Part shown: one piece after another, positions 3,124-37,930 of the stretch
Layout of the letters: the number at the start of each line of letters is the position of its first letter
Position numbering within the stretch: the first letter of the stretch is position 1
Source: a virus
DNA: 38,055 nucleotides
UHGV virus genome: UHGV-0022456
Strand: one strand, 5' to 3'
The notes under the pieces: generated by a model
Told to the model about the DNA's origin: nothing
The model's database searches: none
Seen by the model: only the letters and a program-made list of their open reading frames with translations
Made by a program: the position numbers and the translations under genes

Positions 3124-3148
3124 AGGCCCGTAATGGGCCTTTTCTTTT
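3124..3148 (+). terminator. Rho-independent terminator between convergent early genes and terL
   Basis: AGGCCC(3124-3129)-GTAAT-GGGCCT(3135-3140) followed by TTTTCTTTT; may also serve the minus-strand packaging operon. Confidence 0.6.
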
Positions 3149-4553
3149 ACCAGGCGGAAAGGTTGTAGCCGGTGTTGAGTTGAGGCGAGAATGCACAAAC
3201 AAGGGAGTCGGCAAGGTTGTGTGATGGTATTCCGCGCTTCTTGAGTGATTCCTTGCCCTCAACCTTAATCTTACCGTTGGAGTATTCCCGGTTTGGTGCG
3301 GATAGCTCTCCCTTAAGTTTATTCAGTACCTCAGGCGCAATACAGGATGAGTCAATGCTGATGATATTATCCATGTCCACCTCTTTTCCTTCCACGACCG
3401 CCTTGTAGGTATTATGGAACCGGTCGCGCAGATACCACCAGCCCATTGCCTTCATGTTAAGGAAGTGCTGCCCATTGGTGCGCCCTGGCATGTATTCGGA
3501 GTCTGGATTGCATGGTGATTCACTGGCGGTGAATTCAGAGAACGGTACAATTTGACCATGCTGCCCTTTGGACCTCATATCGGTTTCAATCTCGCGGAAT
3601 TTACCCTTAACACCAGCGCCGACGCCGATGTTGTCGTAAATAACGTGCGATATTCCATCCTGAATGGCCTCAGCATAAACACGCTCACCAACAGCAACCG
3701 GGTCGCGGTCCTTCCATTCATCAAGCTGATAGACAATCTGCCCGTCACGGTAGCACCTGGCGTTAAAGTCTTCGCCCTCATCCATCGGGTCAAGGCCGCA
3801 GAACCTGTTTCCGGTGCGTGTTATGCCCAGCTTAAGGTGTGCGTCGATTGCTGCCTCTATCCATGAAGGTTTGATGATTGAAAGCGCGGAGTTAGCGACC
3901 GGCATCCCCAGATAGACGTGCTGGTAAAGCTCGGGGTCGTCATTCTTCATTAGCTCCATATCGATACGCAACTCCTCCGGGAATCGCGGGTTAGCGTCGT
4001 AGTTTATGCAGCGCACGATGCAGTATGGCTTGCCCTTGATGGTATCAGGGTACTTCCGGTTAGTCACGAATCGCTGATAGGTGTCATCCAGTGGCGACTC
4101 TGGGTTAAAGCTAACCCATATCTCTGAGCCTTTTTTACGCAGCGTAGGGATGAGCAGCTTCCAGGAATCTTTTGTTACCTTCGCGGCCTCCTCCACCCAT
4201 GCAGCGTCGAACCCGGCGTACCCCTTCACCTTCTGCTGGTTGCGATGCAGGCCGTCAAATTTAATGATGCCCGTTCCGCGTTTTGCCCTTATTTCAGTTT
4301 TCAGGACGTCAACCATGTCATGCAGGTTTCGGCGCTCAATCTCTTCGATAAACTCCTGGTATACGGAGTCCTCGATAGATTTCATGATTTCACGGAAGCA
4401 GACAAGGCGCCACCCGTGCCAGATGACGTTATTGAGCAGGATGGTTATGAATGTGCGGGTCTTTGCAGAGCCACGCCCACCGTATGCAACCTTGAACCTG
4501 GCTGGCTGCAAAAAGTCACGGTAGGCGCGGAAGATTTCACAGGTTTCACTCAT
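3147..4553 (-). CDS. terL: Terminase large subunit (PBSX/Terminase_3-like)
   Basis: 468 aa; N-terminal P-loop KVAYGGRGSAKT; directly downstream of and overlapping the small-subunit gene. Confidence 0.85.
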   Translation of the reverse strand: MSETCEIFRAYRDFLQPARFKVAYGGRGSAKTRTFITILLNNVIWHGWRLVCFREIMKSIEDSVYQEFIEEIERRNLHDMVDVLKTEIRAKRGTGIIKFDGLHRNQQKVKGYAGFDAAWVEEAAKVTKDSWKLLIPTLRKKGSEIWVSFNPESPLDDTYQRFVTNRKYPDTIKGKPYCIVRCINYDANPRFPEELRIDMELMKNDDPELYQHVYLGMPVANSALSIIKPSWIEAAIDAHLKLGITRTGNRFCGLDPMDEGEDFNARCYRDGQIVYQLDEWKDRDPVAVGERVYAEAIQDGISHVIYDNIGVGAGVKGKFREIETDMRSKGQHGQIVPFSEFTASESPCNPDSEYMPGRTNGQHFLNMKAMGWWYLRDRFHNTYKAVVEGKEVDMDNIISIDSSCIAPEVLNKLKGELSAPNREYSNGKIKVEGKESLKKRGIPSHNLADSLVCAFSPQLNTGYNLSAW

Positions 4554-5151
4554 CAGCGATTTTATATACTGGCGCCTGAGGAGTCATTGAGCCATCCTCA
4601 GACACATGGTTAACGGTTTCCTTGTACCCACCCAGCATCTTGATGAGCATGTCCTGCGCCTTCTGCTGGTCGGCCATTTCAAACTTCGGCCCCATCTTCG
4701 TGAAGGTGATACCTTTGATGAGTCCGCGAATTTCTTCGGGAACCTCGTCAGAGCTCATCTTCACGACCGGAACAGTCATTTCGCCAATCACCTCACCGTC
4801 ATCGTTCACCATCGGGCGCGGCTCCCAACCGATGAACTGAGTCACGTCAGCGAATGCCTGCGCCTGAATCCTGGATGCAATTTCGTCCAGGCTCATGAGT
4901 TTTGACTTGGCAATGAGTCGGCGAGCCTCACGGACGTAGGGTCCGACTTTAGGGTGGGTTAACAATTTGCATCCGGCAACTACGGCAGACTTATATGCCA
5001 CTTCTTCGCCATAGGCATGGAGATATGCTCTAGTTGCGTTACCATTAGCAATATAATGATTAGCAAATGTTAAATGGTCTTTACTCAGTTGAGCCGCCAT
5101 TTCCTCAAGCTCAGGCGTGAAGAAAGGCAGGTTGTCGTCTGCCTCTGCCAT
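4546..5151 (-). CDS. terS: Terminase small subunit
   Basis: 201 aa; N-terminal FANHYIANGNATRAYLHAYG resembles Terminase_2-type small subunits; 8-nt overlap with terL. Confidence 0.75.
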   Translation of the reverse strand: MAEADDNLPFFTPELEEMAAQLSKDHLTFANHYIANGNATRAYLHAYGEEVAYKSAVVAGCKLLTHPKVGPYVREARRLIAKSKLMSLDEIASRIQAQAFADVTQFIGWEPRPMVNDDGEVIGEMTVPVVKMSSDEVPEEIRGLIKGITFTKMGPKFEMADQQKAQDMLIKMLGGYKETVNHVSEDGSMTPQAPVYKIADE

Positions 5152-5152
5152 A

Positions 5153-5353
5153 TCAATCCTCCTCCACCAGCACCAGCTTAAACCGTGAGCGAGCGACTTT
5201 CTCGCCGTAGTTATGGATGGCGCGTGGGTTTGGTGTGTTTAAACTCTTACTGCGGCCGGGAGTAATGAATACATCCTCGCCATTAGCCGCAGCGTCCATT
5301 GCTTCTTTCATGCCGTTACGGATAAAGTCACGCGGGGTAAATTGTTTCATCAT
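5153..5353 (-). CDS. Hypothetical protein (66 aa) in packaging operon
   Basis: ORF ending 1 nt before terS start. Confidence 0.45.
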   Translation of the reverse strand: MMKQFTPRDFIRNGMKEAMDAAANGEDVFITPGRSKSLNTPNPRAIHNYGEKVARSRFKLVLVEED

Positions 5354-5401
5354 TAATCCTTTCCGTTGTTTCCCCTATTATCGCCCCGTAATGAAACAGT
5401 G

Positions 5402-5902
5402 TCAACCTCGGTAAGATTTGATCTCACTGCGCACCCAGTTGCGTGGGATGGAGAATGTGCCCATTTTCTTTCCGGACTCGGACGCCTCTTTGCACATCAG
5501 GCGACCGTCTGAAGGGCGATACTCTGCGTTATTCACCACATCCCGCAGCCAGAAATCGCCGTTCACTTTATGGGTGAATGTACGGACATGCCCATCCACT
5601 TCAACCTCCACTGTCATCTGCACGTTGCGCAGGATGTTCACCACCGTTGCCCAGCTCTTGAACCCGTACTTTTTCATCAGGTCGGTGACGGGTATCAGCT
5701 CCGGGTCAATTTCATGGGCTTTGGCAATAAATGGGGCCATGTCGATTACTGGTGACGCGTCGACTGGTGAGGCATCAGAAGTCTGTGATTTCTTTCCAGA
5801 CTTAAGCGCCTTCACCTGCAGTTTAAGCTCTTTCACTTCGGCGATGAGTTTTTCAACCTGTGCGGCAAGATTATTGTAGTGCGGGGATGGTTTGCGTTTC
5901 AT
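5402..5902 (-). CDS. Hypothetical protein (166 aa), first gene of packaging operon
   Basis: ATG 5902 preceded by AGGAG SD; N-terminal coiled coil; Ser/Asp/Pro-rich linker. Confidence 0.5.
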   Translation of the reverse strand: MKRKPSPHYNNLAAQVEKLIAEVKELKLQVKALKSGKKSQTSDASPVDASPVIDMAPFIAKAHEIDPELIPVTDLMKKYGFKSWATVVNILRNVQMTVEVEVDGHVRTFTHKVNGDFWLRDVVNNAEYRPSDGRLMCKEASESGKKMGTFSIPRNWVRSEIKSYRG

Positions 5903-7833: not shown

Positions 7834-9438
7834 ATGGCAGAAGAACAAATAAACAGCCTCGTTAACCTGGCGGCTGAGCAATCACTTATCGGCGGCGTGC
7901 TGCTACTCGGATTCGATGCGGATTTTCGCGAGCGTACGGACTACGTTTTCCAGAATGTACGGGAATCTGATTTCTATTCTTCCGCACATAAAATCATCTG
8001 GCGTGAAATCTGTGCGATGACCGACAAGGCGAAGTCGGTGGATGTAATTACCCTGTTCGACATTATCGAAAGCAAGGGGATGGGTGAAAAGATAGGCGGG
8101 TTCGCATACCTGTCAGAGATAGCAAAAGGCACACCAAGCGCCGCAAACATCAACGCCTATGCTGATATTGTGGTCGAGCGCTCAAATGCGCGTGAGGTTC
8201 TGCGCCGGATGAATGCCGCCCGTGAAATCATCACCAAAGAGGATGGTCGGTCGCTGGCTATCCGCCTGGCAGAAGCGAGTGACATTACCGCAGGCATCGA
8301 CCAGATATCAGCGGGCCGTATGCTGTTTAATCCTGTCGATGTGATCACCTCGCAGCTGGAGACCATTGATGAAGACTATTCCCTTATCGAGAAGATTTTC
8401 AATGAATGTATTAAGCACAAAGATATTACTCTGCTTACTGGCGCTGGCGGTACGGGTAAATCCTGGCTCACCATCAAACTTGGCATTTCTGTCGCGCTCG
8501 GGCGTCCCGCACTTGGCGGGAAATACAATTTCCTCACTCCCGTGGAGCAGGGGGTAGTTGTCTTCCTGATTGGCGAGGATAGCGTTGATGACTACCGGCA
8601 TCGCCTGGATAAGCTGATTAAGGCGGCGGGCATGACCCGTGATGAAAAGGCGCAGATTCTTTCGTCAATCCTGTTCGTTCCTTTGCGTGATAAGGATATT
8701 CGCCTGATTAAGCGTGAGCGTGGGGGCGACCTGGAGCAGACCGGGGTTATCCGCAATCTTGCCGCATCACTGAAGGCGTGTAACTGCCGCCTCGCCATTC
8801 TGGACCCGATGAACAAATTTGCCAGCGGTGAGGAGAACAGTAACAACGAGGCAAACGTATTTATCAACGCTGTACGGCGCGTGGTTGATTTATCCGGCTC
8901 GGCGGTGCTGATGGTCCACCACTCATCAAAAAACGACCCAGGAGGCTCGCGCGGGGCTTCTGCGCTGGTGGATGGGGCGCGTTGTCATCTAGCACTGGCA
9001 ACCATGTCGCAGCTTAAAGGCGAGAAGGCAGAACAAGGGGATGATGATGTTATCCGCCTGACCATGCCGAAGCATAACAACTTTAAAGGATGGGATGGCC
9101 CGGTGTGGCTCAAGCGAAGTGACGCTGGCGACATGCTGACGATTGACCCACCAGAGATGATTGGTACAGGAGCTATCGCCAAGCGCTTTCATGTGGATAC
9201 AACGCGCGTTAAATCGCTCATTATTGAATGCATCCGCAGCAACTCCAGACCGACAAGCACCAGCGAGTTTATTAACGCCTTCATCGAAGGGCCAGGCAAA
9301 GAGCTGTGCCCTAACTATGGTAAGGCAAAGGACATCATCGGCGAAATGCTTAACGACGGCATTCTGGAAGAAGGCACGATGTTCAATCGCAAGGTGTTGC
9401 TGGTGGCTGAGCGCGAGAGTGATAATTTCACCTGGTGA
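7834..9438 (+). CDS. Replication protein with DnaB-like N-terminal domain and RecA/RepA-like P-loop ATPase
   Basis: 534 aa; N-terminal region resembles DnaB helicase N-domain; Walker A LLTGAGGTGKS. Confidence 0.65.
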   Translation: MAEEQINSLVNLAAEQSLIGGVLLLGFDADFRERTDYVFQNVRESDFYSSAHKIIWREICAMTDKAKSVDVITLFDIIESKGMGEKIGGFAYLSEIAKGTPSAANINAYADIVVERSNAREVLRRMNAAREIITKEDGRSLAIRLAEASDITAGIDQISAGRMLFNPVDVITSQLETIDEDYSLIEKIFNECIKHKDITLLTGAGGTGKSWLTIKLGISVALGRPALGGKYNFLTPVEQGVVVFLIGEDSVDDYRHRLDKLIKAAGMTRDEKAQILSSILFVPLRDKDIRLIKRERGGDLEQTGVIRNLAASLKACNCRLAILDPMNKFASGEENSNNEANVFINAVRRVVDLSGSAVLMVHHSSKNDPGGSRGASALVDGARCHLALATMSQLKGEKAEQGDDDVIRLTMPKHNNFKGWDGPVWLKRSDAGDMLTIDPPEMIGTGAIAKRFHVDTTRVKSLIIECIRSNSRPTSTSEFINAFIEGPGKELCPNYGKAKDIIGEMLNDGILEEGTMFNRKVLLVAERESDNFTW

Positions 9439-9444
9439 TTGTGG

Positions 9445-9472
9445 TTGACATTATTAAGTAAAGTGGTAAGGT
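9445..9472 (+). promoter_or_regulatory. Promoter-like element within GGTTGACAT motif upstream of helicase gene
   Basis: -35 TTGACA 9445-9450, 16-nt spacer, -10-like TAAGGT 9467-9472; GGGAG SD, ATG 9503. Confidence 0.35.
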
Positions 9473-9502
9473 TTGAACGGATTTTTAGCGGGAGCAAAAG
9501 AA

Positions 9503-11251
9503 ATGAAACAGCCACGCCCATATCAACAGGAAGCCATTAACTCCACTATCGAGGAGATTAAAAAATATGCCAAGCAGGGGAAATCAGCCCACCTGATTAT
9601 TGATGCAGGGCCTGGAGCGGGGAAGACATTGCTTATGGCTTTTTTGGCTAAGCATGTATTTGAGAGAGGTGGCCGTGTTGTGCAACTGGCTCGCCAGCCG
9701 ATACTGGCAAAGCAGAACTATGACGAGATGTACGAGTGCGGCATACCAGCCGCGCTTTACGCAGCAAAGTTCAACCGCCGTCAGGTTGCGCAGGTTACTG
9801 TTGCAACGGAGGGCACAATAGCCAATTCTCTGCATGACATGAATAAGCCGGTGGATCTTCTACTTTTGGATGAGTGTCACACTCTTAGTCCGGATGATGA
9901 AGATACGCAGATGAACACTATCATTCGACACCTGGATGATGTGACTACAAAAGCCGGCAGAAAGATGCACGTTGTCGGCCTCACGGGAAGCCCGTTCCGT
10001 GGGGTTACTCCATTAACCAGTTTCGATTTCTGGCACGATACGGTATTCAATATTGGCACTGATAAGCTGACGGAACTGGGTTACTTGTCAGTTCCTGTTT
10101 TCGGGTTCGCCGATGCCGATGATGATGCCCTGGACTTCTCCGGCGTAAACACTCGCAGCGGCTCATGGGAGTTCAGCGAGAAGGAACTCGACGAAATCGC
10201 CATGTCCGACGCAGGCAAGAAAAAACTTGTCCGCATTCTGATGCAGGTCATTGAAAAGACCAAAGACCGAAATCAGCGGATAGTCTTTGCATCTACCAAG
10301 CGACACGCCAGGGAGATTCGCCGCATCCTGATTGCCCTGGGCATCGACAAAAGCAAGATTGGCCTTGTCACTGACGATTCCAGCGAGGCAGAGAAAGACC
10401 GCGTTATCAAGCTGTCGAAGGAAGGCAAATTAGACTGGCTGATTAACGTGTCGGTGCTGACCACTGGCTTTAACTCGCCCCTGATTGACGTGGTGGTGTA
10501 CCTGCGCCCGATTGGTTCACTGGTGTTGCTGATTCAGTCAATGGGGCGAGGTGCTCGCCTGCTGGAAGACTGGATGAAAGAGGCTGGATTCCACAAAGAG
10601 AACTATCTGGTGCTGGACTATGCCGGGGTATTCGACCGGCTGGGGCATTTGCTGGATGACCCGACTACCGGCGAGGCGCTTGCTCAGCGTGATAAGTCTC
10701 GCGGAGAAGATAAACCATGCCCGCGCTGCCATGAGATGAACAGCAAGGCGGCTCGTCGCTGCCGGGCAAGGGATGAGTCTGAGCCTGATAAACGCTGTTC
10801 ATTTTTTTGGACGTCACAGATTTGCCCCGACTGCCAGACTGAAAATGACATTGCAGCTACTGAATGCCGTAATCCGTCATGCAGGCGAGAACTAAGGGAC
10901 TCAAATAAGGCTCTGCTGCATCATCCGTATTCAGATGAGGAAATGGTTGGCGTTAAGAAGATGGACGTGCTGAATACGAAAGGAGGTGCGCTAATGGTGC
11001 GCTTCACCCTGGAAGGCGACGAGCGACAACCGTACCTGATATTCCCGATGGGTGGCGATTTATCGAGGCGCATTCTGAAAAAGGAATTTGTCGATGTGTA
11101 CGTACAACCTGGCTGGCGCGGAAGGGTGGCGTCCATGAAAACAGCCGAGCAGATTGTGAAGATGGCGGGCGCATTCATGACGCCGAAGGCTATCGCATAC
11201 CGCATCAACGGCAATAACAAATATGTAGTTGGTCGCAGGAAATTCTCATGA
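9503..11251 (+). CDS. SF2 DEAH-box DNA helicase with C-terminal zinc-ribbon region
   Basis: Track ORF 9473-11251 trimmed to ATG 9503; Walker A GPGAGKT; box II LLLLDECH; C-terminal CPRCH...CRARD and CPDCQ...CRNPSC. Confidence 0.75.
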   Translation: MKQPRPYQQEAINSTIEEIKKYAKQGKSAHLIIDAGPGAGKTLLMAFLAKHVFERGGRVVQLARQPILAKQNYDEMYECGIPAALYAAKFNRRQVAQVTVATEGTIANSLHDMNKPVDLLLLDECHTLSPDDEDTQMNTIIRHLDDVTTKAGRKMHVVGLTGSPFRGVTPLTSFDFWHDTVFNIGTDKLTELGYLSVPVFGFADADDDALDFSGVNTRSGSWEFSEKELDEIAMSDAGKKKLVRILMQVIEKTKDRNQRIVFASTKRHAREIRRILIALGIDKSKIGLVTDDSSEAEKDRVIKLSKEGKLDWLINVSVLTTGFNSPLIDVVVYLRPIGSLVLLIQSMGRGARLLEDWMKEAGFHKENYLVLDYAGVFDRLGHLLDDPTTGEALAQRDKSRGEDKPCPRCHEMNSKAARRCRARDESEPDKRCSFFWTSQICPDCQTENDIAATECRNPSCRRELRDSNKALLHHPYSDEEMVGVKKMDVLNTKGGALMVRFTLEGDERQPYLIFPMGGDLSRRILKKEFVDVYVQPGWRGRVASMKTAEQIVKMAGAFMTPKAIAYRINGNNKYVVGRRKFS

Positions 11252-11736
11252 TTACTCAAGAAGAGCTAAAGAAGGCATTGAATTACGATCCATTAACTGG
11301 AATTTTCACCAGGAATATGAGGGCATCAAATCAAGTTCCTGGACAAGTTGTTGGCTCTAAAGATAGCGGTGGTTACTTGGTTGCAATGATTAACGGGAAA
11401 AGGTACTCACTACACAGGATGGCCTGGCTTTATTTTTATGGAAGGATACCAGTTGGAGATATAGACCACATAAACGGCGTTAGGGACGATAACCGAATTG
11501 TAAACCTCAGGGAATGCAGCCGTAGCAAGAATTGCATGAACAAAAAGATAAATAAAAACAACATGTCAGGAGTTAAAGGGGTTGGCTGGCATAAGCAAAG
11601 CGGCAAGTGGAGAGCAAGGATAATGATAGACGGAGAGTCTATTCATATCGGTGAATTTAAATCAATAGGTGATGCCGAGTCAGCAATATCAGAAGCAAGA
11701 GATAAAATACATAAGCAATTCGCGAGGCATTCATGA
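11248..11736 (+). CDS. HNH endonuclease with AP2-like DNA-binding domain (paralog 1)
   Basis: HRMAWLYFYG...DHINGVRDDNRIVNLR HNH core followed by SGVKGVGWHKQSGKWRARI AP2-like segment; AT-rich; ATGA overlap with helicase stop. Confidence 0.7.
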   Translation: MITQEELKKALNYDPLTGIFTRNMRASNQVPGQVVGSKDSGGYLVAMINGKRYSLHRMAWLYFYGRIPVGDIDHINGVRDDNRIVNLRECSRSKNCMNKKINKNNMSGVKGVGWHKQSGKWRARIMIDGESIHIGEFKSIGDAESAISEARDKIHKQFARHS

Positions 11737-12149
11737 TAAGGAAAAATCAAAGCCATGACGGTTATTTTATTTACTGGGATGATGAGGCAAAGGGAGATTG
11801 CCGACTTGAGGTATCAGAGCAGATTGACGCTATGGCATGGCTGAAGGAGTTTTACCCGGATGCCAGGAAGGTGACTTTTCATGTACCGAACGAGAGCGAT
11901 TCTAAGCCTCAGTACAGGGCATCTCTTCAGCAGCAAGGGGTAACGTCAGGCGTTAGCGATATCGTTACGCTGTGGGGAACTGGTGCGGTTTTTGAGATGA
12001 AGCGGGCCATCAAGTCGAAGTCATCCGTTAGCAAAGAGCAGCGGGAGTTTCTGAGGCTGTCCCATCAGCAAGGGAAGTTTGCCGCATTGTGCTACGGAGC
12101 TTCAGCTTTTAAGCAGGCATGGGTTGACTATCTCGCCACTTTTAATTAA
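11733..12149 (+). CDS. VRR-NUC domain nuclease
   Basis: 138 aa; PD-(D/E)xK-like GVSDIVTLWGTGAVFEMKRAIK; ATGA overlap with upstream HNH gene. Confidence 0.6.
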   Translation: MIRKNQSHDGYFIYWDDEAKGDCRLEVSEQIDAMAWLKEFYPDARKVTFHVPNESDSKPQYRASLQQQGVTSGVSDIVTLWGTGAVFEMKRAIKSKSSVSKEQREFLRLSHQQGKFAALCYGASAFKQAWVDYLATFN

Positions 12150-12177
12150 GGTTGACATAATACAAGGAGGGAACACA

Positions 12178-12387
12178 ATGAACCGCGAAGAATTTATTCA
12201 GAAAAATATCAAGAAGATTTTAATCAGCGAAGGCTTCAGCCATGAGGCGGCTGAGGTTGGCGCAGATGCTGCGCTGGATTTGTACCTGAGAAAGTCAGAC
12301 TTTCCGAACGGAAAGGCTTTCGACTTCTGCCTGATGAATGCACGCCGTGAAGCCAAGATGAAGCAGTCAGCAATGAGGATTAAGTAA
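12178..12387 (+). CDS. Hypothetical protein (69 aa)
   Basis: Track ORF 12079-12387 trimmed to ATG 12178 with AGGAGG SD at 12165-12170. Confidence 0.45.
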   Translation: MNREEFIQKNIKKILISEGFSHEAAEVGADAALDLYLRKSDFPNGKAFDFCLMNARREAKMKQSAMRIK

Positions 12388-12451
12388 TGACTTTACCTTG
12401 CTCAACTTGTGGCCTAAGATTAATTTTTAAAAAGCAGATTGAGGATAATTT

Positions 12452-12958
12452 ATGTTTCACCCAACAGGTCTAAGTCACGATGAAATATGTAGTCTTTTTG
12501 ACTACGACCCAGAGACAGGAGAAATAAAGAGAAAGTTCAAGGTTAGAGGCTCAAGATCTGATGGTAAAACAGGGGGAATGGGCGGACACAAGTACATAAG
12601 GATAGGATTCAGAGGTTTTAGGATTTACGCGCACAGGCTTGCATGGTTCATCTATCACGGTCATCTGGACCGGGACATTGAAATAGACCACCTGAATGGA
12701 AATGGATATGACAACAGAATTTGCAACTTAAGGCTTGCCACTAGCCAGCAAAATTCATTCAACATAAAAAAACATGCAGATAATCAATCTGGTTATAAGT
12801 GGGTTTACTTTGACAAAAGAAGGCAGAAGTTTTCTTCAAGGGTTTCAGTTAACGGAAGGTCAATGTTTCTTGGTTACTACATAAACCCAGAGGATGCACA
12901 TATGGCGGCGCTAAAGGTAGCCATGGCAGTGCACAAAGAATTTTTCAGGAGCAAATAG
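12452..12958 (+). CDS. HNH endonuclease with AP2-like domain (paralog 2)
   Basis: HRLAWFIYHG...DHLNGNGYDNRICNLR then SGYKWVYFDKRRQKFSSRV; AT-rich; GAGG SD. Confidence 0.7.
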   Translation: MFHPTGLSHDEICSLFDYDPETGEIKRKFKVRGSRSDGKTGGMGGHKYIRIGFRGFRIYAHRLAWFIYHGHLDRDIEIDHLNGNGYDNRICNLRLATSQQNSFNIKKHADNQSGYKWVYFDKRRQKFSSRVSVNGRSMFLGYYINPEDAHMAALKVAMAVHKEFFRSK

Positions 12959-12959
12959 C

Positions 12960-13901
12960 ATGAACTACTTACCAGCACTAAAACCAGCACATGATTTGAT
13001 TCTTTCACAAGAAAGTTCATTCATGTCGATACTTTCTGATGAAAAAATTAATTTTCATAAGGAAATGAATTTTGCAATGCAGCAGCTTTCAGGAAATGAC
13101 TTCTTGCTTAAAGTGGCAATGCAAAACCCACAATCACTAAAGGATGCAATATTAAACCTTGCAGCATTCGGTCTAAGTCTTAATCCTGCACTTAAGCATG
13201 CTTATCTGGTTCCAAGAAAAGGTAAGATATGCCTTGATGTTGGTTATCTTGGCATGGAATACATAGCCATAGACTCAGGAAGCGTGCTATGGGTTCAAAG
13301 CAAGATTGTTTATTCAAATGATACATATGAGTCAATGGGGATAGACAAGGCTCCAGAGCACAGATATAGCGCGTTCGGAAGTAGAGGCTCAATTGTAGGG
13401 GCTTATTGCGTTGCAAAGGTTCACGATGGCTCATTCCTTACCGAAGAGATGAATATAGAGGAAATATATAAAATAAGGTCTCGTTCTGAATCGTTCTCAA
13501 AGGGAAGCATGTCTCCTTGGAAAACTGACGAAGGCGAGATGATAAAGAAGACAGTTATAAAGAGAGCAAGCAAAGGGTGGCCGAAGTGCGACCGACTGCA
13601 AAGTGTTATTAGTTTCGCCAATGAGAATGAGGGCATTGACTTCCAGCGTGAGCGAGCACCAGTGCGCGAGAAGGCTATCAGCCCGGCAACGGAAGAGCAG
13701 GTTAAGACAATCCGTGAAGGCCTGGAGTTTATCAGCCGACCGGAAGAGGCCTTCCTGAAATACTTCTCTGGCAGCATAGCCAAGCGCGTTATTGAGTCCA
13801 TTGAGGAGCTGACCGAGGAGGAGGCAATCAAGGCTATCAGCACCATCCAGAGCATCATGGATAAGCAGGCAGAGAAGCAATCAAATAGAGAGGTATTCTG
13901 A
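12960..13901 (+). CDS. recT: RecT-family single-strand annealing protein
   Basis: 313 aa; pairs with downstream YqaJ-type exonuclease; 5' two-thirds AT-rich, 3' third GC-normal. Confidence 0.65.
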   Translation: MNYLPALKPAHDLILSQESSFMSILSDEKINFHKEMNFAMQQLSGNDFLLKVAMQNPQSLKDAILNLAAFGLSLNPALKHAYLVPRKGKICLDVGYLGMEYIAIDSGSVLWVQSKIVYSNDTYESMGIDKAPEHRYSAFGSRGSIVGAYCVAKVHDGSFLTEEMNIEEIYKIRSRSESFSKGSMSPWKTDEGEMIKKTVIKRASKGWPKCDRLQSVISFANENEGIDFQRERAPVREKAISPATEEQVKTIREGLEFISRPEEAFLKYFSGSIAKRVIESIEELTEEEAIKAISTIQSIMDKQAEKQSNREVF

Positions 13902-14434
13902 TGGGAAGGAGACCTTCTGACATAGATGATGACATGGTTTCTGAGCTTAGAGACAGATTAAATTATGACCCTAATACAGGAATTCTTACATGGAAGAAAG
14001 TCAGAAAAAGAAAACTGATAGGTTCCGAGGCTGGGTTCATGATGAATTCTGGATACATGGCCCTCAAGATTGGGACAAGAAGGATTCAATGCCATAGGGT
14101 TGCCTATGCAATAGTTAACGGAGCAATAGGTGATGGGGTAGAAATCGACCACATTAATGGTGTTAAGCATGATAATAGGATTTTAAATCTTCGTGCATGC
14201 TCTGCATCTCAAAACAGAATGAACGTAGCACTGATGAAAAATAACACATCAGGTGTTAAAGGCGTAAGTTTTTGCAGATCGAGCGGTAAATACAGGGCAG
14301 AAATAATGGTTAATTATAAATCTTACTATCTAGGAGAGTTTTCTAGCATAGATGAGGCATCAAAAGCTGTCTCATCAGTTAGAGCCAATATTCATAAAGA
14401 ATACTCTAATCATGGGGAATTCAAAAAATGCTGA
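13901..14434 (+). CDS. HNH endonuclease with AP2-like domain (paralog 3)
   Basis: HRVAYAIVNG...DHINGVKHDNRILNLR then SGVKGVSFCRSSGKYRAEI; AT-rich; overlaps recT stop by 1 nt and exonuclease start by 7 nt. Confidence 0.7.
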   Translation: MGRRPSDIDDDMVSELRDRLNYDPNTGILTWKKVRKRKLIGSEAGFMMNSGYMALKIGTRRIQCHRVAYAIVNGAIGDGVEIDHINGVKHDNRILNLRACSASQNRMNVALMKNNTSGVKGVSFCRSSGKYRAEIMVNYKSYYLGEFSSIDEASKAVSSVRANIHKEYSNHGEFKKC

Positions 14435-15111
14435 TTGATGACTTGAGGGCTAGGCTTTCTGCATTCAATGATGTTTTCAACCATGACATGCTAACAGTTC
14501 AGCAGCGTGATTATATGTGGTTTAAGTGTCGTCTTGGTGTGATCACCGCATCAAGCATATCAGGCGTACTGGCAAAGACAGGAAGCGCTGCCCGTGATGG
14601 AATAATGGCTGAGTTAATCGCAGAGATTGCCACAGGATCTCCTGGTGAGCCGGTAAGCGCTAAGGCATTGCAGCATGGTATCGACAACGAACCATTCGCC
14701 ATAGAATCATACTCCTTTGCGACCGGTGAAATCGTCAACCAGATACCTTTCGTTTACCGTGATGAAACGATGCGATGCGGATGCTCCCCGGACGGCGTAA
14801 CAGAAAAGAAAACCATTGAGTGCAAAGCTCCGTGGAATACCAGGTATCACATCGAGGCCATTGTTGATGGTAGAATTAAGAAGGAGTACCAGGAACAGGT
14901 TCAGTTCCAGATGTGGGTGTGCGGCACGGAGTCGGTGGACTTCGTTTCATTCGACCCGCGCATGTTGAAGCATAACTTCTTTATGACGACAGTCGAACGC
15001 TCAGACGCGTTCATGAAGAGGTTCGACGACGCCATCCCGCAATTCATCAAGGAAATGGATGCCAAACTGGAACGGCTTGGCTTCAGGTTCGGTGAGCAAT
15101 TCAAAGTATGA
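14428..15111 (+). CDS. YqaJ-like (lambda Exo-type) recombination exonuclease
   Basis: 227 aa; N-terminal WFKCRLGVITASSISGV typical of YqaJ; partner of RecT. Confidence 0.7.
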   Translation: MLIDDLRARLSAFNDVFNHDMLTVQQRDYMWFKCRLGVITASSISGVLAKTGSAARDGIMAELIAEIATGSPGEPVSAKALQHGIDNEPFAIESYSFATGEIVNQIPFVYRDETMRCGCSPDGVTEKKTIECKAPWNTRYHIEAIVDGRIKKEYQEQVQFQMWVCGTESVDFVSFDPRMLKHNFFMTTVERSDAFMKRFDDAIPQFIKEMDAKLERLGFRFGEQFKV

Positions 15112-15114
15112 GAA

Positions 15115-15132
15115 AGGGGCCGATTGGCCCCT
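15115..15132. terminator. Bidirectional terminator between convergent early and tail operons
   Basis: AGGGGCC(15115-15121)-GATT-GGCCCCT(15126-15132); T-rich on both flanks. Confidence 0.6.
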
Positions 15133-33440: not shown

Positions 33441-33515
33441 TGGCGGGAAGGCATGGACTCGAACCATGATAAAAGAGTTAACAGCTCTCCGTAATAACCT
33501 TTATACGACCTACCC
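33441..33515 (-). tRNA. tRNA-Asn (anticodon GTT) candidate, phage-encoded
   Basis: Hand-folded cloverleaf: acceptor GGGTAGG/CCTTCCC (one U-U mismatch), D-loop with GG, anticodon stem GAGAG/CTCTT, loop CTGTTAA, T-arm CATGG-TTCGAGT-CCATG, discriminator G, encoded CCA. Confidence 0.55.
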
Positions 33516-33626: not shown

Positions 33627-33735
33627 TGTTGTGTGCCGGTCTTTCCCGTCTGTCATTTACACCACAACGGGGTCAGCGTTGCTTTGAGGCTATCCAATGC
33701 TAGCAAGGTTAGTATTGCCAAATCGTGGAGCTATG

Positions 33736-34011
33736 TCAATCTATTGGTTTCCCCAGTGCGTGCATATCCCCGGATGATTTCGATAATATATCAGCCAGCC
33801 TTCCGAGCTGCCCAGCTATGTCAGATAGATTTTCATTTATCTGCTGTATTTCCTCTTTCAGTGTTGAGCCGCCACCGTAAGGAGTCATGCCAAGCTGCAT
33901 GGCTATAGCCTCAAGAAACTTCGGGGTGTCGTCGCTATCGGTAACACCAAGCCCGCGAGAAATCACGGACACCAATGAATGCAGGTCTTCATTTGTTGTT
34001 TTGTTTTTCAT
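33736..34011 (-). CDS. Hypothetical protein (91 aa)
   Basis: ORF downstream of Arc-like ORF; acidic, Gly-rich centre. Confidence 0.45.
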   Translation of the reverse strand: MKNKTTNEDLHSLVSVISRGLGVTDSDDTPKFLEAIAMQLGMTPYGGGSTLKEEIQQINENLSDIAGQLGRLADILSKSSGDMHALGKPID

Positions 34012-34153
34012 TTTTTCTTTCCATTCTGATGATGTAGTCTGTCACTATGATGTCAAGCATAGAAGGGGCAGACCTGTTATCTTCAGCTGCAAGCCTTCTA
34101 ATCTTGTCCAGCGTCGTTCTTCTGATTGTCATTGAAGCGAAGTTTGGATGCAT
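33989..34153 (-). CDS. Arc-like ribbon-helix-helix DNA-binding protein (54 aa), not in ORF track
   Basis: ATG at 34153 with GGTGA SD; MTIRRTTLDKIRRLAAEDNRSAPSMLDIIVTDYI parallels P22 Arc (LDLVRKVAEENGRSVNSEIYQRV). Confidence 0.45.
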   Translation of the reverse strand: MHPNFASMTIRRTTLDKIRRLAAEDNRSAPSMLDIIVTDYIIRMERKNEKQNNK

Positions 34154-34158
34154 TGCTG

Positions 34159-34356
34159 TCACCACTGCTTCAGCATGGCAATGGCAACCCTCAGGCGGAG
34201 TATCGCAAGCGGCTCAAACCTGAAAGTCCTGACGTGGTAATATCTGGCGCAAGAGTTTAGCTCATCCCTGGTGTTTAACTTAGGCTTTCTGTCAGCGGGA
34301 ATTTGCTTCTGAACCATTTCTGCAAATTCACAGATTAAATCTTTGTTGGCACCCAT
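34159..34356 (-). CDS. Hypothetical protein (65 aa)
   Basis: ORF just downstream of palindrome-rich region 34382-34464. Confidence 0.4.
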   Translation of the reverse strand: MGANKDLICEFAEMVQKQIPADRKPKLNTRDELNSCARYYHVRTFRFEPLAILRLRVAIAMLKQW

Positions 34357-34381
34357 TGTGGTAATGTCTCACTATTTGATT

Positions 34382-34464
34382 AAAAATAACGCCGATGTTG
34401 GCAGCACCGGCGAATGTTTAAAACGTTTTGGCATTCAATTCTTTTGGTGTTACTAGCACCAAAA
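34382..34464 (-). promoter_or_regulatory. Palindrome-rich control region (candidate operators and weak terminator)
   Basis: 10-bp palindrome AAAACGTTTT (34420-34429); inverted repeat TTTTGGTG-7nt-CACCAAAA (34442-34464); minus-strand hairpin CGCCG..CGGCG (34390-34412) plus TTATTTTT. Confidence 0.4.
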
Positions 34465-34480
34465 TAAAAGGAGTATGGTT

Positions 34481-34511
34481 ATTGTTATGTATGCCACTGG
34501 CAATGTCAACC
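34481..34511 (-). promoter_or_regulatory. Promoter-like GGTTGACAT copy at 3' end of lysis cassette
   Basis: Minus strand GGTTGACAT (plus 34503-34511); -35 TTGACA, 17-nt spacer, weak -10 AACAAT. Confidence 0.3.
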
Positions 34512-36524: not shown

Positions 36525-37245
36525 AGAATTGCCGAAGCGTGGTGGATGGCCTGATGGTGCGCTAAATGCCACGCAAGATAAAGATGGCCAGGTGTGCTTT
36601 TCTGCCGGTGCAGTCCCTGAATTTGGCTACGTTGCCTGGGAGGGCGGCGACTGGCTCGGGAATGAGTTTTACGCCACTAGGGCAAGCGACTACGCATATG
36701 CCATCATCACCTGCGAACAATACGAATCAGCACTGGCAGCCAGCAAAGCCGTTGTTGGCCATGACGGCTGGATTCAATGGCATGGCGGTGAGTGCCCTGT
36801 TGATAGTGACGCAATTGTTGAGGTCAAATTCCGAAATCAGAACCGGGACAAAATCAATAGTGACAGAGCCGGAGATTTTTACTGGCCGCATGATGGCCTT
36901 GGATATGACATCATCGCCTACCGGCTGCAACAGCAGACGAAATCAGAACAGGCTTGCGATGACGCTGCGGAAGCTGATGACGAAGCCGACCTGAATGAGT
37001 GCATTGGTCATGATTTTGACGTAGTTAACCATCCATCTCACTACACACAAGGCAGTATAGAGTGTATCGACGCTATTAAAGCTGCGCTAGGTGAAGAGCA
37101 ATATGAGGGGTACTTACGCGGCGCTTGCATTAAGTACCTGTGGCGATATAAAATGAAATCTGGAGTTGAGTCATTGAAAAAATCAGAGTGGTATCTGAAA
37201 AGGTTAATCGAACTTAATGAAGAGATTGAATCCAGAAACAAATAG
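36499..37245 (+). CDS. DUF3310-like phage protein
   Basis: 248 aa; C-terminal HYTQGSIECIDAIKAALGEEQYEGYLRGACIKYLWRYKMKSGVESLKKSEWYLKRLIE matches the remembered DUF3310 signature; GAGGAAG SD. Confidence 0.5.
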   Translation: MKLIDLLVKELPKRGGWPDGALNATQDKDGQVCFSAGAVPEFGYVAWEGGDWLGNEFYATRASDYAYAIITCEQYESALAASKAVVGHDGWIQWHGGECPVDSDAIVEVKFRNQNRDKINSDRAGDFYWPHDGLGYDIIAYRLQQQTKSEQACDDAAEADDEADLNECIGHDFDVVNHPSHYTQGSIECIDAIKAALGEEQYEGYLRGACIKYLWRYKMKSGVESLKKSEWYLKRLIELNEEIESRNK

Positions 37246-37930
37246 ACCTTACGTTTTGGGCGAGTACAACCCGGACACGGGGTTGTACTTCAGAGCATAT
37301 GTAAAAACCATCGTCAAATCTGATGGGTACTTTAAAGAAGCGTGGTTATCCCATGATGCTCTCGAAAGATTCATAGCTCGACAAAGGTTATCTGCCAGAA
37401 AATGTCAAATCAGGCGTAATGAGGAGAATCGTAAATGGATTAACGACTATAAAATATCAAAAGGGTGTAGCGTTTGTGGATATAAATCTCACGCTGCTGC
37501 ATTAGATTTTGACCATTTGGAAAGATCAGATAAAAAATTCACGATTGGGAGACGTTTGGGTGGATTGTCGAAAGAGAGGCTGCTTGCTGAAATTGAGAAA
37601 TGCAGAATACTCTGCGCCAATTGTCACAGGGTGAAAACTTTCGAGAATAATGAGCACGGAAGAATAAGAAATGATAATTTACTGGAGAGTGCAATAATCG
37701 AGAGTCGAATAGAAAAATCAAGACAAATAAATAAGTTCAGAAGTAAATTCTACACGACGAAAACGAAAAGTAGACTGAAAAATGTATACCTTTCAAAATC
37801 GGGATTGTACTTCGTGAGAAAACAAATCGGACGGGTAAGAACGTGCGCAGGGTGCTTTGACAACATATTCGATGCGGCATGCTGTCTGATTGGGGAGCAT
37901 CAACTGAAACCGTTATGCGATGGTGAGTGA
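37217..37930 (+). CDS. HNH endonuclease (distinct family from the HNH-AP2 paralogs)
   Basis: CSVCGYKSHAAALDFDHLERSD...CRILCANCHRVKTFEN; AT-rich; 5' end overlaps DUF3310-like gene by 29 nt. Confidence 0.65.
   Translation: MKRLNPETNRPYVLGEYNPDTGLYFRAYVKTIVKSDGYFKEAWLSHDALERFIARQRLSARKCQIRRNEENRKWINDYKISKGCSVCGYKSHAAALDFDHLERSDKKFTIGRRLGGLSKERLLAEIEKCRILCANCHRVKTFENNEHGRIRNDNLLESAIIESRIEKSRQINKFRSKFYTTKTKSRLKNVYLSKSGLYFVRKQIGRVRTCAGCFDNIFDAACCLIGEHQLKPLCDGE

Follow-up and report, generated by a model that had tools for sequence, protein, structure and literature searches.

Three HNH Endonuclease Genes at Gene Junctions of a Coliphage-like Replication/Recombination Operon, Probable Free-Standing Homing Cassettes

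What are three endonuclease genes of one family doing within a single phage operon, each at a junction between two other genes? The question is raised by UHGV virus genome UHGV-0022456, a whole metagenomic contig of 38,055 bp (ENA ERZ27287279 k141_237837) that is complete and coliphage-like and is referred to here as the window. Its genes HNH1 (11248–11736, 162 amino acids), HNH2 (12452–12958, 168 amino acids), and HNH3 (13901–14434, 177 amino acids) are all on the plus strand, exactly where an earlier note made from the sequence had placed the three open reading frames (ORFs). The neighboring genes encode a superfamily 2 (SF2) helicase, a VRR-NUC-like nuclease (a weak Pfam match), RecT, and a YqaJ-type exonuclease (exo), and the description of this region as a replication/recombination operon was also borne out. 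Four junctions of the operon are designated here as site A (DnaB/helicase), site B (helicase/VRR-NUC), site C (upstream of recT), and site D (recT/exo). HNH1 occupies site B, HNH2 occupies site C directly 5′ of recT, and HNH3 occupies site D. The three genes are most probably free-standing homing endonuclease cassettes of an I-HmuI-like HNN type (HNH_3), which move by intronless homing and are accompanied by immune alleles of their targets.

Approximately 25 related genomes were gathered from IMG/VR, from metagenome assemblies, and by exact-protein look-ups. One of them, Escherichia phage BUCT618, is an isolated, cultured phage that is collinear with the window at a DNA identity of ~70–90%; the other relatives, designated by L numbers, are metagenome assemblies. 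Insert-less relatives, with which the earlier note had suggested that the window be compared, were found. In BUCT618, the genes for the helicase, VRR-NUC, a small protein, RecT, and exo are joined directly and sites B, C, and D are empty, with the junctions near 9140, 9796, and 10746 of OM735461.1, respectively, and several metagenomic relatives (L003, L004, L184, L186, and L187) likewise carry none of HNH1, HNH2, and HNH3. HNH1 is the only one of the three in L173 (100% identical) and, as a 78% ortholog, in L002/L144 and L182. HNH2 is the only one in L164, L165, and L167–L171, and HNH3 is the only one in L137 (98%), L174, L175, L179, and L181. L177 and L178 combine HNH3 with a fourth family member at site A, and L185 has another member of the HNH family at site C. 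All three genes were found together in the window alone, and no relative has the same three genes at identical positions with normal composition. For each of sites B, C, and D, both occupied and empty versions occur within a single group of genomes that is ~70–90% identical in DNA, and HNH1, HNH2, and HNH3 assort independently among the ~25 genomes. This independent presence and absence indicates that the three genes are mobile.

Most relatives are without HNH1 at site B, 15 relatives are without HNH2, and 17 are without HNH3 at site D. In a VRR-NUC-anchored subset with less bias (n = 9), an HNH1-type gene was present in two genomes, an HNH gene at site C in one, and HNH3 in none. The exact HNH2 protein was detected on at least 22 other contigs, always 5′ of the 313-residue RecT, and the exact HNH3 protein was detected on 17 contigs. 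The relatives with one HNH gene only, together with the gene-linked tracts in the flanks, support the earlier interpretation of these genes as free-standing homing endonucleases.

At site D, HNH3 sits in the TGATG overlap of the recT stop and the exo start. The TGA of recT overlaps the ATG of HNH3, recT ending at the first nucleotide of HNH3 (13901, a 1-nt overlap), and exo starts at 14428, a 7-nt overlap with the end of HNH3 at 14434; both overlaps had been given correctly in the earlier note. The recT/HNH3 junction, GAGAGGTATTCTGATG, is conserved in all of the genomes, and HNH3 uses the ribosome-binding site of recT. The last codons of HNH3, GGGGAATTCAAAAAATG, supply the ribosome-binding site and the ATG for exo. 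The exo gene (14428–15111, +) is the last of the operon and encodes the partner of RecT, with an E-value of 7.6e-20 for Pfam YqaJ. Nucleotide diversity (π) among the HNH3 carriers (n = 7) is 0.06–0.17 at the 3′ end of recT and 0–0.014 from 13901 to ~14440, and it rises slowly along exo.

The first 30 nt of exo (14428–14457, +) are recoded in the window, where they read ATGCTGATTGATGACTTGAGGGCTAGGCTT instead of ATGTTAATCGACGAACTACGCACGCGCCTG. Over these positions the HNH3 carriers differ from non-carriers of the same exo allele by 13.8/30, and the later bins differ by ~2–5; seven of the codon changes are synonymous and two are non-synonymous. Non-carriers from across two deeply diverged exo alleles differ by 1.4/30 at nt 1–30, versus 7–15/30 elsewhere. 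The empty junction is thus an island of conservation and the occupied junction an island of recoding. The recoded 5′ end of exo was found in all eight of the HNH3 carriers and in none of the 17 non-carriers. A conserved empty junction and a recoded occupied one are what would be expected of a homing site with an immune allele, and exo 14428–14457 is a candidate for the immune allele of the HNH3 target.

At site B, HNH1 sits in the TCATGA overlap of the helicase stop and the VRR-NUC start. The TGA of the helicase gene (9473–11251, +; ResIII/DEAD/Helicase_C by Pfam and uninterrupted in the window) overlaps the ATG of HNH1, and the TCATGA overlap is rebuilt at the 3′ end of HNH1. In the empty site, the same overlap joins the helicase gene straight to VRR-NUC. 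The VRR-NUC-like gene (11733–12149, +) matched Pfam VRR_NUC with an E-value of 7.9e-4, below the cut-off, and is annotated as VRR-NUC in BUCT618. The divergence between the window and L173 is 0.04–0.20 upstream of HNH1, 0–0.01 inside the gene, and 0.03–0.25 downstream. The 5′ end of VRR-NUC is recoded at 11733–11762 (+) and encodes MIRKNQSHDG instead of MIVKKQHADG. Within these 30 nt, genomes without HNH1 differ from one another by 0.8/30, and the allele found with the exact HNH1 differs from them by 10.1/30; the later bins differ by ~2–5. This segment is a candidate for the immune half of the HNH1 target.

Between HNH1 and the ortholog at the same site, the identity is 75% for DNA and 78% for protein. 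The proportions of nonsynonymous (pN) and synonymous (pS) differences are 0.14 and 0.68, respectively, and the corresponding rate ratio (dN/dS) of ~0.09 means that the protein is maintained by selection. A divergence of ~300 nt from BUCT618 at the 3′ end of the helicase gene was considered as an HNH1-linked tract and was rejected. The tract is unrelated to HNH1, since L137 and L171, which are without HNH1, match the window at 90–96% up to the helicase stop codon. The HNH1 ortholog of L144 is located behind a BUCT618-type helicase allele, and the helicase divergence is therefore a difference between alleles.

The left edge of the HNH2 cassette at site C is the TAATGAC motif, in which the TAA of the small conserved gene (12175–12387, +; 70 amino acids, no family) overlaps the ancestral recT start. 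The small gene is 93–97% identical to those of the relatives right up to 12393. An AT-rich spacer of 64 nt (12388–12451, +; G+C content 0.31) is present in all HNH2 carriers and holds the ribosome-binding site of HNH2, GAGGATAATTTATG. A vestigial start, ATGAC, is preserved at 12387–12391 and corresponds to nt 1–5 of the ancestral recT. HNH2 ends 1 nt before the new recT start, and its product shares 30–35% identity with the remaining members of the family in these phages. The vestigial ATG opens an ORF of 28 codons (12387–12473) that ends within the 5′ end of HNH2 in another frame; in L169 this ATG is ATA, and the ORF is therefore probably not functional.

The RecT of the window (12960–13901, +; 313 amino acids) is, by its pattern of identities, a chimera in which a foreign core of residues 1–230 is joined to a native C-terminal tail. 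The foreign, AT-rich 5′ two-thirds of the gene (12960–13650, +; nt 1–690, ~residues 1–230) encode the whole Pfam RecT core (residues 36–211). Over nt 1–690, carriers are 51–78% identical to genomes without an HNH gene at site C, versus 98–100% among HNH2 carriers and 82–92% among non-carriers. The mean G+C content in 60-nt bins is 0.25–0.51 for the carriers and is in each bin below that of the non-carriers (0.47–0.56). The native 3′ third (13651–13901, +; ~85 C-terminal residues) has ordinary population diversity, and the last 250 nt are ~90% identical both within and between the carrier classes. Nucleotide diversity among the HNH2 carriers (n = 6) is 0.04–0.22 upstream, 0.000–0.014 from 12390 to 13590, and 0.06–0.12 from 13650 onward. 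The AT-rich recT segment was found in all nine of the genomes in which site C holds an HNH gene and in none of the 15 in which it does not.

One of these nine genomes, L185, has at 5160–5672 an HNH gene whose product is 35% identical to that of HNH2 and which is located 5′ of the same AT-rich recT, with a segment identity of 96–99%. Homology to the window resumes ~20 nt before the stop codon of this gene; the endonuclease at site C has been swapped in L185. The proposal that HNH2 and the 5′ part of recT form one inseparable cassette was rejected because L185 pairs the segment with a different HNH gene. The AT-rich recT therefore goes with the occupation of site C by an HNH gene rather than with HNH2 itself.

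The G+C contents of HNH1, HNH2, and HNH3 are 0.407, 0.414, and 0.382, respectively, versus 0.494 for the window, and are within the lowest 1–7% of 500-bp windows. At site C, the AT-rich tract spans 12388 to ~13440 and thus reaches into the 5′ half of recT. Within this gene, the G+C content of nt 1–240 is 0.350 (0.275 at third codon positions), and it returns to 0.48 no earlier than the final third. The earlier note had described all three genes as AT-richer than their neighbors; all three are AT-rich, but HNH2 is not AT-richer than the recT downstream of it.

The proteins were compared with known families and structures. HNH1, HNH2, and HNH3 matched Pfam HNH_3 (PF13392) with scores of 61.4, 50.5, and 50.3 bits (cut-off 24.8) and E-values of 6e-17, 1.6e-13, and 1.9e-13, respectively. 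The alignment of the three proteins is full-length with pairwise identities of 33–46%, versus 30–45% in a larger alignment, and it agrees with the earlier description of diverged proteins with a shared HNH core; the common motif is (I/L)DH(I/L)NGxxxDNRIxNLR. The catalytic residues are intact in HNH1 (D73-H74, N82, N86, N95, and N98), HNH2 (D79-H80, N88, N92, N101, and N104), and HNH3 (D83-H84, N92, N96, N105, and N108). A six-frame hidden Markov model search of the window returned exactly three HNH copies and no fourth.

A family profile was built from 41 HNH family members and matched I-HmuI (PDB 1U3E) with an E-value of 7e-9 over the N-terminal and HNH parts. Residues D74-H75, N87, and N96 of I-HmuI align to columns that are invariant in the 41 members (D83, H84, N96, and N105 of HNH3). 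Roles for the I-HmuI residues D74, H75, and N96 were reportedly assigned by Shen et al. in 2004. HNH1-3 would be expected to nick or cut DNA. I-HmuI and the HNH enzymes MobA and MobE nick a single strand (PMC2988022), and by analogy nicking is likelier than double-strand cutting for HNH1-3.

The scores for the AP2 family (PF00847; cut-off 33.3 bits) were 19.7 bits for HNH1 and 23.8 bits (E 5.8e-5) for HNH3, both below the cut-off, and HNH2 gave no Pfam match to AP2. Over the C-terminal part, the family profile matched the plant AP2/ERF structures of WRI1 (7WQ5, E 3.5e-8), TEM1 (7ET4, 2e-6), and AtERF1 (1GCC, 4.7e-3). An AlphaFold (AF2) model was made for HNH3, to which HNH2, the most diverged copy, was aligned. 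The model has a predicted local distance difference test score (pLDDT) of 91.6, and its C-terminal part consists of strands 122–125, 130–137, and 140–147 and helix 150–164. It superposes on AtERF1 (1GCC) with a root-mean-square deviation (rmsd) of 1.4 Å over 49 columns. A Foldseek search with the model ranked I-HmuI first and AP2 domains next. With respect to the beta-beta-alpha-metal fold of such endonucleases, the top match, 1U3E, had a probability of 1.00 over 109 columns with ~22% identity, a template modeling (TM) score of 0.41, an rmsd of 5.0, and an E-value of 2.5e-3. A single-sequence search of HNH3 against the PDB sequences gave nothing meaningful, and the profile of 41 sequences was needed. 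The shared HNH-AP2 architecture claimed earlier stands for the HNH part in all three proteins and for the AP2 part at the level of the family profile and predicted fold, but not at the Pfam cut-off for the individual proteins; the C-terminal SGVKGV segment does not extend to HNH2, which has SGYKWV. The assignment of HNH1-3 as HNH_3 endonuclease genes with an AP2-like C-terminal part is, by these comparisons, right at the family level.

Each of HNH1-3 forms an ORF of its own, complete with start and stop codons, at a gene junction. An Rfam scan of the window returned no intron family, and the HNH genes are therefore free-standing.

For each HNH gene, the drop in diversity among the carriers begins at the insertion point. 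Purifying selection cannot explain the low diversity of the cassettes, because the synonymous sites are frozen too. The three empty-site sequences were sought in the window with up to three mismatches, and none was present. Each gene is inserted precisely at a stop/start junction of the operon, by which expression of the downstream gene is kept. If these genes home, the enzyme would, during co-infection, bind the empty junction of a related phage through its AP2 and N-terminal domains and would nick or cut at or near this junction, the sequence of which is conserved in genomes that lack the gene. The break would be repaired by recombination with the carrier genome as template, and the HNH gene and a variable stretch of the downstream gene would be copied into the recipient, a co-conversion that would amount to localized marker exclusion. 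The carrier itself would be protected by the insertion, which splits the site, and by the recoding of the downstream 5′ end. The three genes appear to have arrived independently, HNH2 with ~690 nt of foreign AT-rich recT. The nuclease activity, its one- or two-strand mode, the targets, the repair pathway, and marker exclusion are what we infer for HNH1-3 from these patterns.

Several points weigh against homing. Most of the carriers came from the exact-protein look-ups, and their zero HNH amino acid diversity is partly by construction; the diversity signal is still informative despite this bias, given the synonymous sites, the low-diversity block that reaches 690 nt past HNH2, and the diverged backbones. 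Co-occurring strains might in principle have been assembled into a chimera that shows the triple combination. The window contig is on record for four samples and L180 independently links HNH3 with a window-type RecT, both of which count against an assembly chimera. The Fisher tests for the associations at site C (p ~8e-7, AT-rich recT) and site D (p ~9e-7, recoded exo) ignore shared ancestry and ascertainment. L002 and L182, with the diverged HNH1 ortholog, keep an unrecoded VRR-NUC 5′ end; recoding is therefore not required at site B, where insertion by itself may suffice for protection of the carrier. As L185 demonstrates, the AT-rich recT segment is not specific to HNH2, and the Foldseek E-values obtained with the HNH3 model are weak, the best being 2.5e-3.

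The same distribution might be produced if the HNH genes were cargo ("morons") moved between related phages by ordinary homologous or illegitimate recombination at gene boundaries, with the endonucleases inactive or active elsewhere and not driving the movement, and the linked flank alleles being the module variant that each gene happens to lie beside. Deep alleles of the helicase (~68% versus 83–97% amino acid identity), of exo (~71% versus 95%), and of VRR-NUC (52% in L137 and L187) do recombine freely among the backbones, independently of the HNH genes, and the boundary between the exo alleles lies ~45 nt from the start of the gene. The same junctions also hold other small ORFs or a ParB-like gene, and the recT allele of L185 accompanies a different HNH gene. 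Such passive mosaicism leaves unexplained a recoding that is confined to 30 nt by the insertion and is mostly synonymous at exo, the conservation of the empty site (1.4/30 versus 7–15/30), the invariant catalytic residues, and the dN/dS of 0.09 for HNH1. Moreover, identical cassettes in backbones that are 6–17% diverged require frequent and recent transfer, as endonuclease drive gives, and we regard passive carriage as improbable. A domesticated function, such as nicks that initiate RecT/exo recombination-dependent replication, regulation of the operon by the AP2 part, or an aid to packaging like that of the HK97 HNH protein, would fit the location in a replication/recombination operon, the translational coupling to essential-looking genes, and the purifying selection, and domestication of similar nucleases is known, e.g., HK97 HNH (PMC10448857). 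The HNH genes are nevertheless dispensable, since complete relatives including BUCT618 are without any or all of them; they are not beside the terminase genes (3147–5151, −), and their AT-rich composition and backbone-independent distribution point to foreign mobile DNA. Domestication is for these reasons considered very improbable.

It was also considered whether one ancestral HNH gene was duplicated in the operon and the copies diverged in place. Identities are 45–50% among HNH1, HNH3, and the L177 gene at site A, versus 35–47% to most outside homologs, and HNH3 and the L177 gene have a nearly identical 3′ end. Empty sites B (ATTCTCATGATAGTC) and D (ATTCTGATGTTAATC), located for example at L164:7271–7300 and L164:9440–9469, match at 16–17 of 30 ATG-anchored positions, which is in the top 0.4–0.9% of the window background, a similarity that is marginal and was compared post hoc. 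No relative has all three genes, and each is found alone in different backbones. HNH2 is 30–35% identical to the others and arrived with a foreign recT, and outside homologs from Jerseyvirus, Felixounavirus, Pectobacterium, and Pseudomonas phages are, at 46–49%, no more distant from the copies than these are from one another. Local duplication is on these grounds hardly credible as the origin of all three, and within the lineage a gene may have moved ectopically once or twice. The term paralogous, used in the earlier note, is apt in the sense of one family but not in the sense of local duplicates, since the copies are no closer to each other than to outside homologs. It is possible that HNH1 and HNH3, which are 45% identical, have related target preferences.

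The closest known system by profile and structure is I-HmuI of Bacillus phage SPO1 (1U3E), with which the N-terminal beta region and the D-H…N…N His-Me finger align, the positions for catalysis and metal binding being conserved. I-HmuI is encoded in a group I intron and has another C-terminal DNA-binding module, whereas HNH1-3 are free-standing and have an AP2-type domain. HNH-AP2 proteins ("HNN-AP2", "IPA-HNH") are a recognized family of phage homing endonucleases (PMC10448857, PMC2248197), found in Xanthomonas phages Xp10/OP1/Xop411, T1, T5, Rtp, RB16/RB43, and ICP1 gp59/gp209 (PMC2248197, PMC10448857). They share with HNH1-3 the N-terminal HNN-type HNH and the C-terminal AP2 domain, the occurrence of several copies per genome, and a location that varies among close relatives and is often beside replication or essential genes. 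No conserved flanking sequence was found in the Xanthomonas phages, and a sequence-independent transfer was suggested (PMC2248197). In contrast, exact insertion points, conserved empty sites, and recoded immune alleles are readable for HNH1-3. Homologs of the HNH genes are present in >3,200 of 50,697 phage records, and the identity to any annotated phage homolog is <50%.

For SegF/SegG (GIY-YIG) and MobA/MobE (HNH) of phage T4, intronless homing, co-conversion, marker exclusion, and activity have been demonstrated experimentally (PMC2988022, PMC2790892). As with HNH1-3, the gene is located between conserved genes; as proposed for HNH1-3, the target is in or near the neighbor, and the carrier is protected by sequence differences. 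The Seg enzymes belong to GIY-YIG and the C-terminal regions of the Mob enzymes are of the zinc-finger type (PMC10448857), whereas that of HNH1-3 is AP2 and their homing is read from sequences. The HK97 gp74 type is, like HNH1-3, a small phage HNH protein; it adjoins the terminase genes and cos site, and the phage group to which it belongs has conserved it. Membership of HNH1-3 in this terminase-associated class was rejected, as they are dispensable and lie on the opposite strand at a distance of ~6 kb from the terminase genes.

The elements are well known in kind, and the current understanding of how they work is unchanged. HNH-AP2 genes are among the commonest phage accessory genes, and the published accounts of the family cited here leave their targets and mobility undefined. 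The population data provide an insertion point, a conserved empty site, and a recoded allele for three or four members at once. The label "putative homing endonuclease" is thereby turned into directly testable enzyme/target pairs, for which BUCT618 is a cultured, insert-free recipient. The chimeric RecT is a natural example of an endonuclease-linked co-conversion tract yielding a chimeric recombinase.

Three broader suggestions are offered tentatively. Beyond their own propagation, the cassettes might bring about the replacement of alleles in the recombination machinery of the phage itself, which would make the operon an arena of competing gene drives; this is speculative, and if true, such drives shape which recombinase alleles persist in natural phage populations. 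It is conceivable, though doubtful, that the site-C cassette has spread a foreign RecT core (residues 1–230), stopping before the native C-terminal ~85 residues. The C-terminal tail of the Red-beta protein of phage lambda contacts its partner exonuclease, and by analogy the RecT tail would do so too. Perhaps, finally, the cassettes have a reusable 3′ "adaptor" (ribosome-binding site and ATG) that permits insertion at any stop/start overlap without polar effects. If so, the adaptor explains how one family occupies at least four junctions of one operon and how a member was exchanged at one site (L185).

Other elements were found at the same junctions in the relatives. At site A, L177 (2092–2634) and L178 carry a fourth HNH_3+AP2 gene 5′ of the helicase gene; its product has 180 amino acids and is 50% identical to HNH3, and the 3′ end in L177, AATCATGGGAAATTCAAAAAATG, is almost identical to that of HNH3. 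Site A is empty in the window at ~9439–9502, between the gene for a DnaB-like/AAA_25 protein (7834–9438) and the helicase gene, which is next in the gene order. A ParB-HTH protein of 257 amino acids is encoded at site A in L165, L167, and L175. The SF2 helicase is split in L174 (1498–4398) and L167 (4401–7283) into an N-terminal part of 243 amino acids and a C-terminal part of ~505–514 amino acids. The gap in L174 holds an ORF of 182 amino acids that matches LAGLIDADG_2 with an E-value of 5.7e-5, just below the cut-off, and a faint Intein_splicing match is on record for L167. No group I intron was detected in the split helicases of L174 and L167 at the Rfam gathering level. The same operon seems to be a target for homing elements of a second class.

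Small ORFs without a Pfam family are present at sites C and D in relatives with no HNH gene there, and the exo 5′ end is unrecoded in these genomes. They encode 73 amino acids (L165:9450–9671, L168, L170, and L173), 47 amino acids (L169:1692–1835), and 56 amino acids (L173:7141–7311). In L137, ~247 nt separate the 70-residue gene from recT. The 73-residue ORF matched the HRLAW…EID box of the HNH proteins only faintly (hhalign probability 24%), and the 56-residue ORF gave no match when tested as an HNH remnant. These small ORFs may be what is left of endonuclease genes, or they may be unrelated insertions by which the target is likewise split.

Promoters and terminators belonging to the HNH genes were sought by a consensus scan, and the counts were equal to those of shuffled controls. 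The same scan placed a GC-rich hairpin 3′ of exo (15115–15132, +), which is the probable terminator of the operon, a weak call because the site counts are not above shuffled controls. A search of complete E. coli genomes with the window matched tail-fibre genes alone, and the window is therefore not a known E. coli prophage. A scan of genome contigs gave a single match, in Verrucomicrobiota, that is irrelevant.

Elsewhere in the window, the gene for the large terminase (3147–4553, −; 468 amino acids, Terminase_3) has no DNA similarity to that of the 790-residue large terminase of BUCT618, and the adjoining small terminase gene is homologous to that of BUCT618. This looks like a module swap of the large terminase within an otherwise collinear genome. 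An AT-rich island (1189–2022, +; G+C content ~0.37–0.42) that is not in BUCT618 encodes an N6 DNA methylase of 277 amino acids (N6_Mtase, E 1.4e-7). Another AT-rich segment without a counterpart in BUCT618 (37217–37930, +; G+C content 0.36–0.40) encodes a protein of 237 amino acids with no Pfam match, and a further such stretch is located at ~33631–34504. A tRNA gene is present at 33444–33515 (−; Rfam tRNA, 54 bits), and BUCT618 has a tRNA-Ile gene at the matching position.

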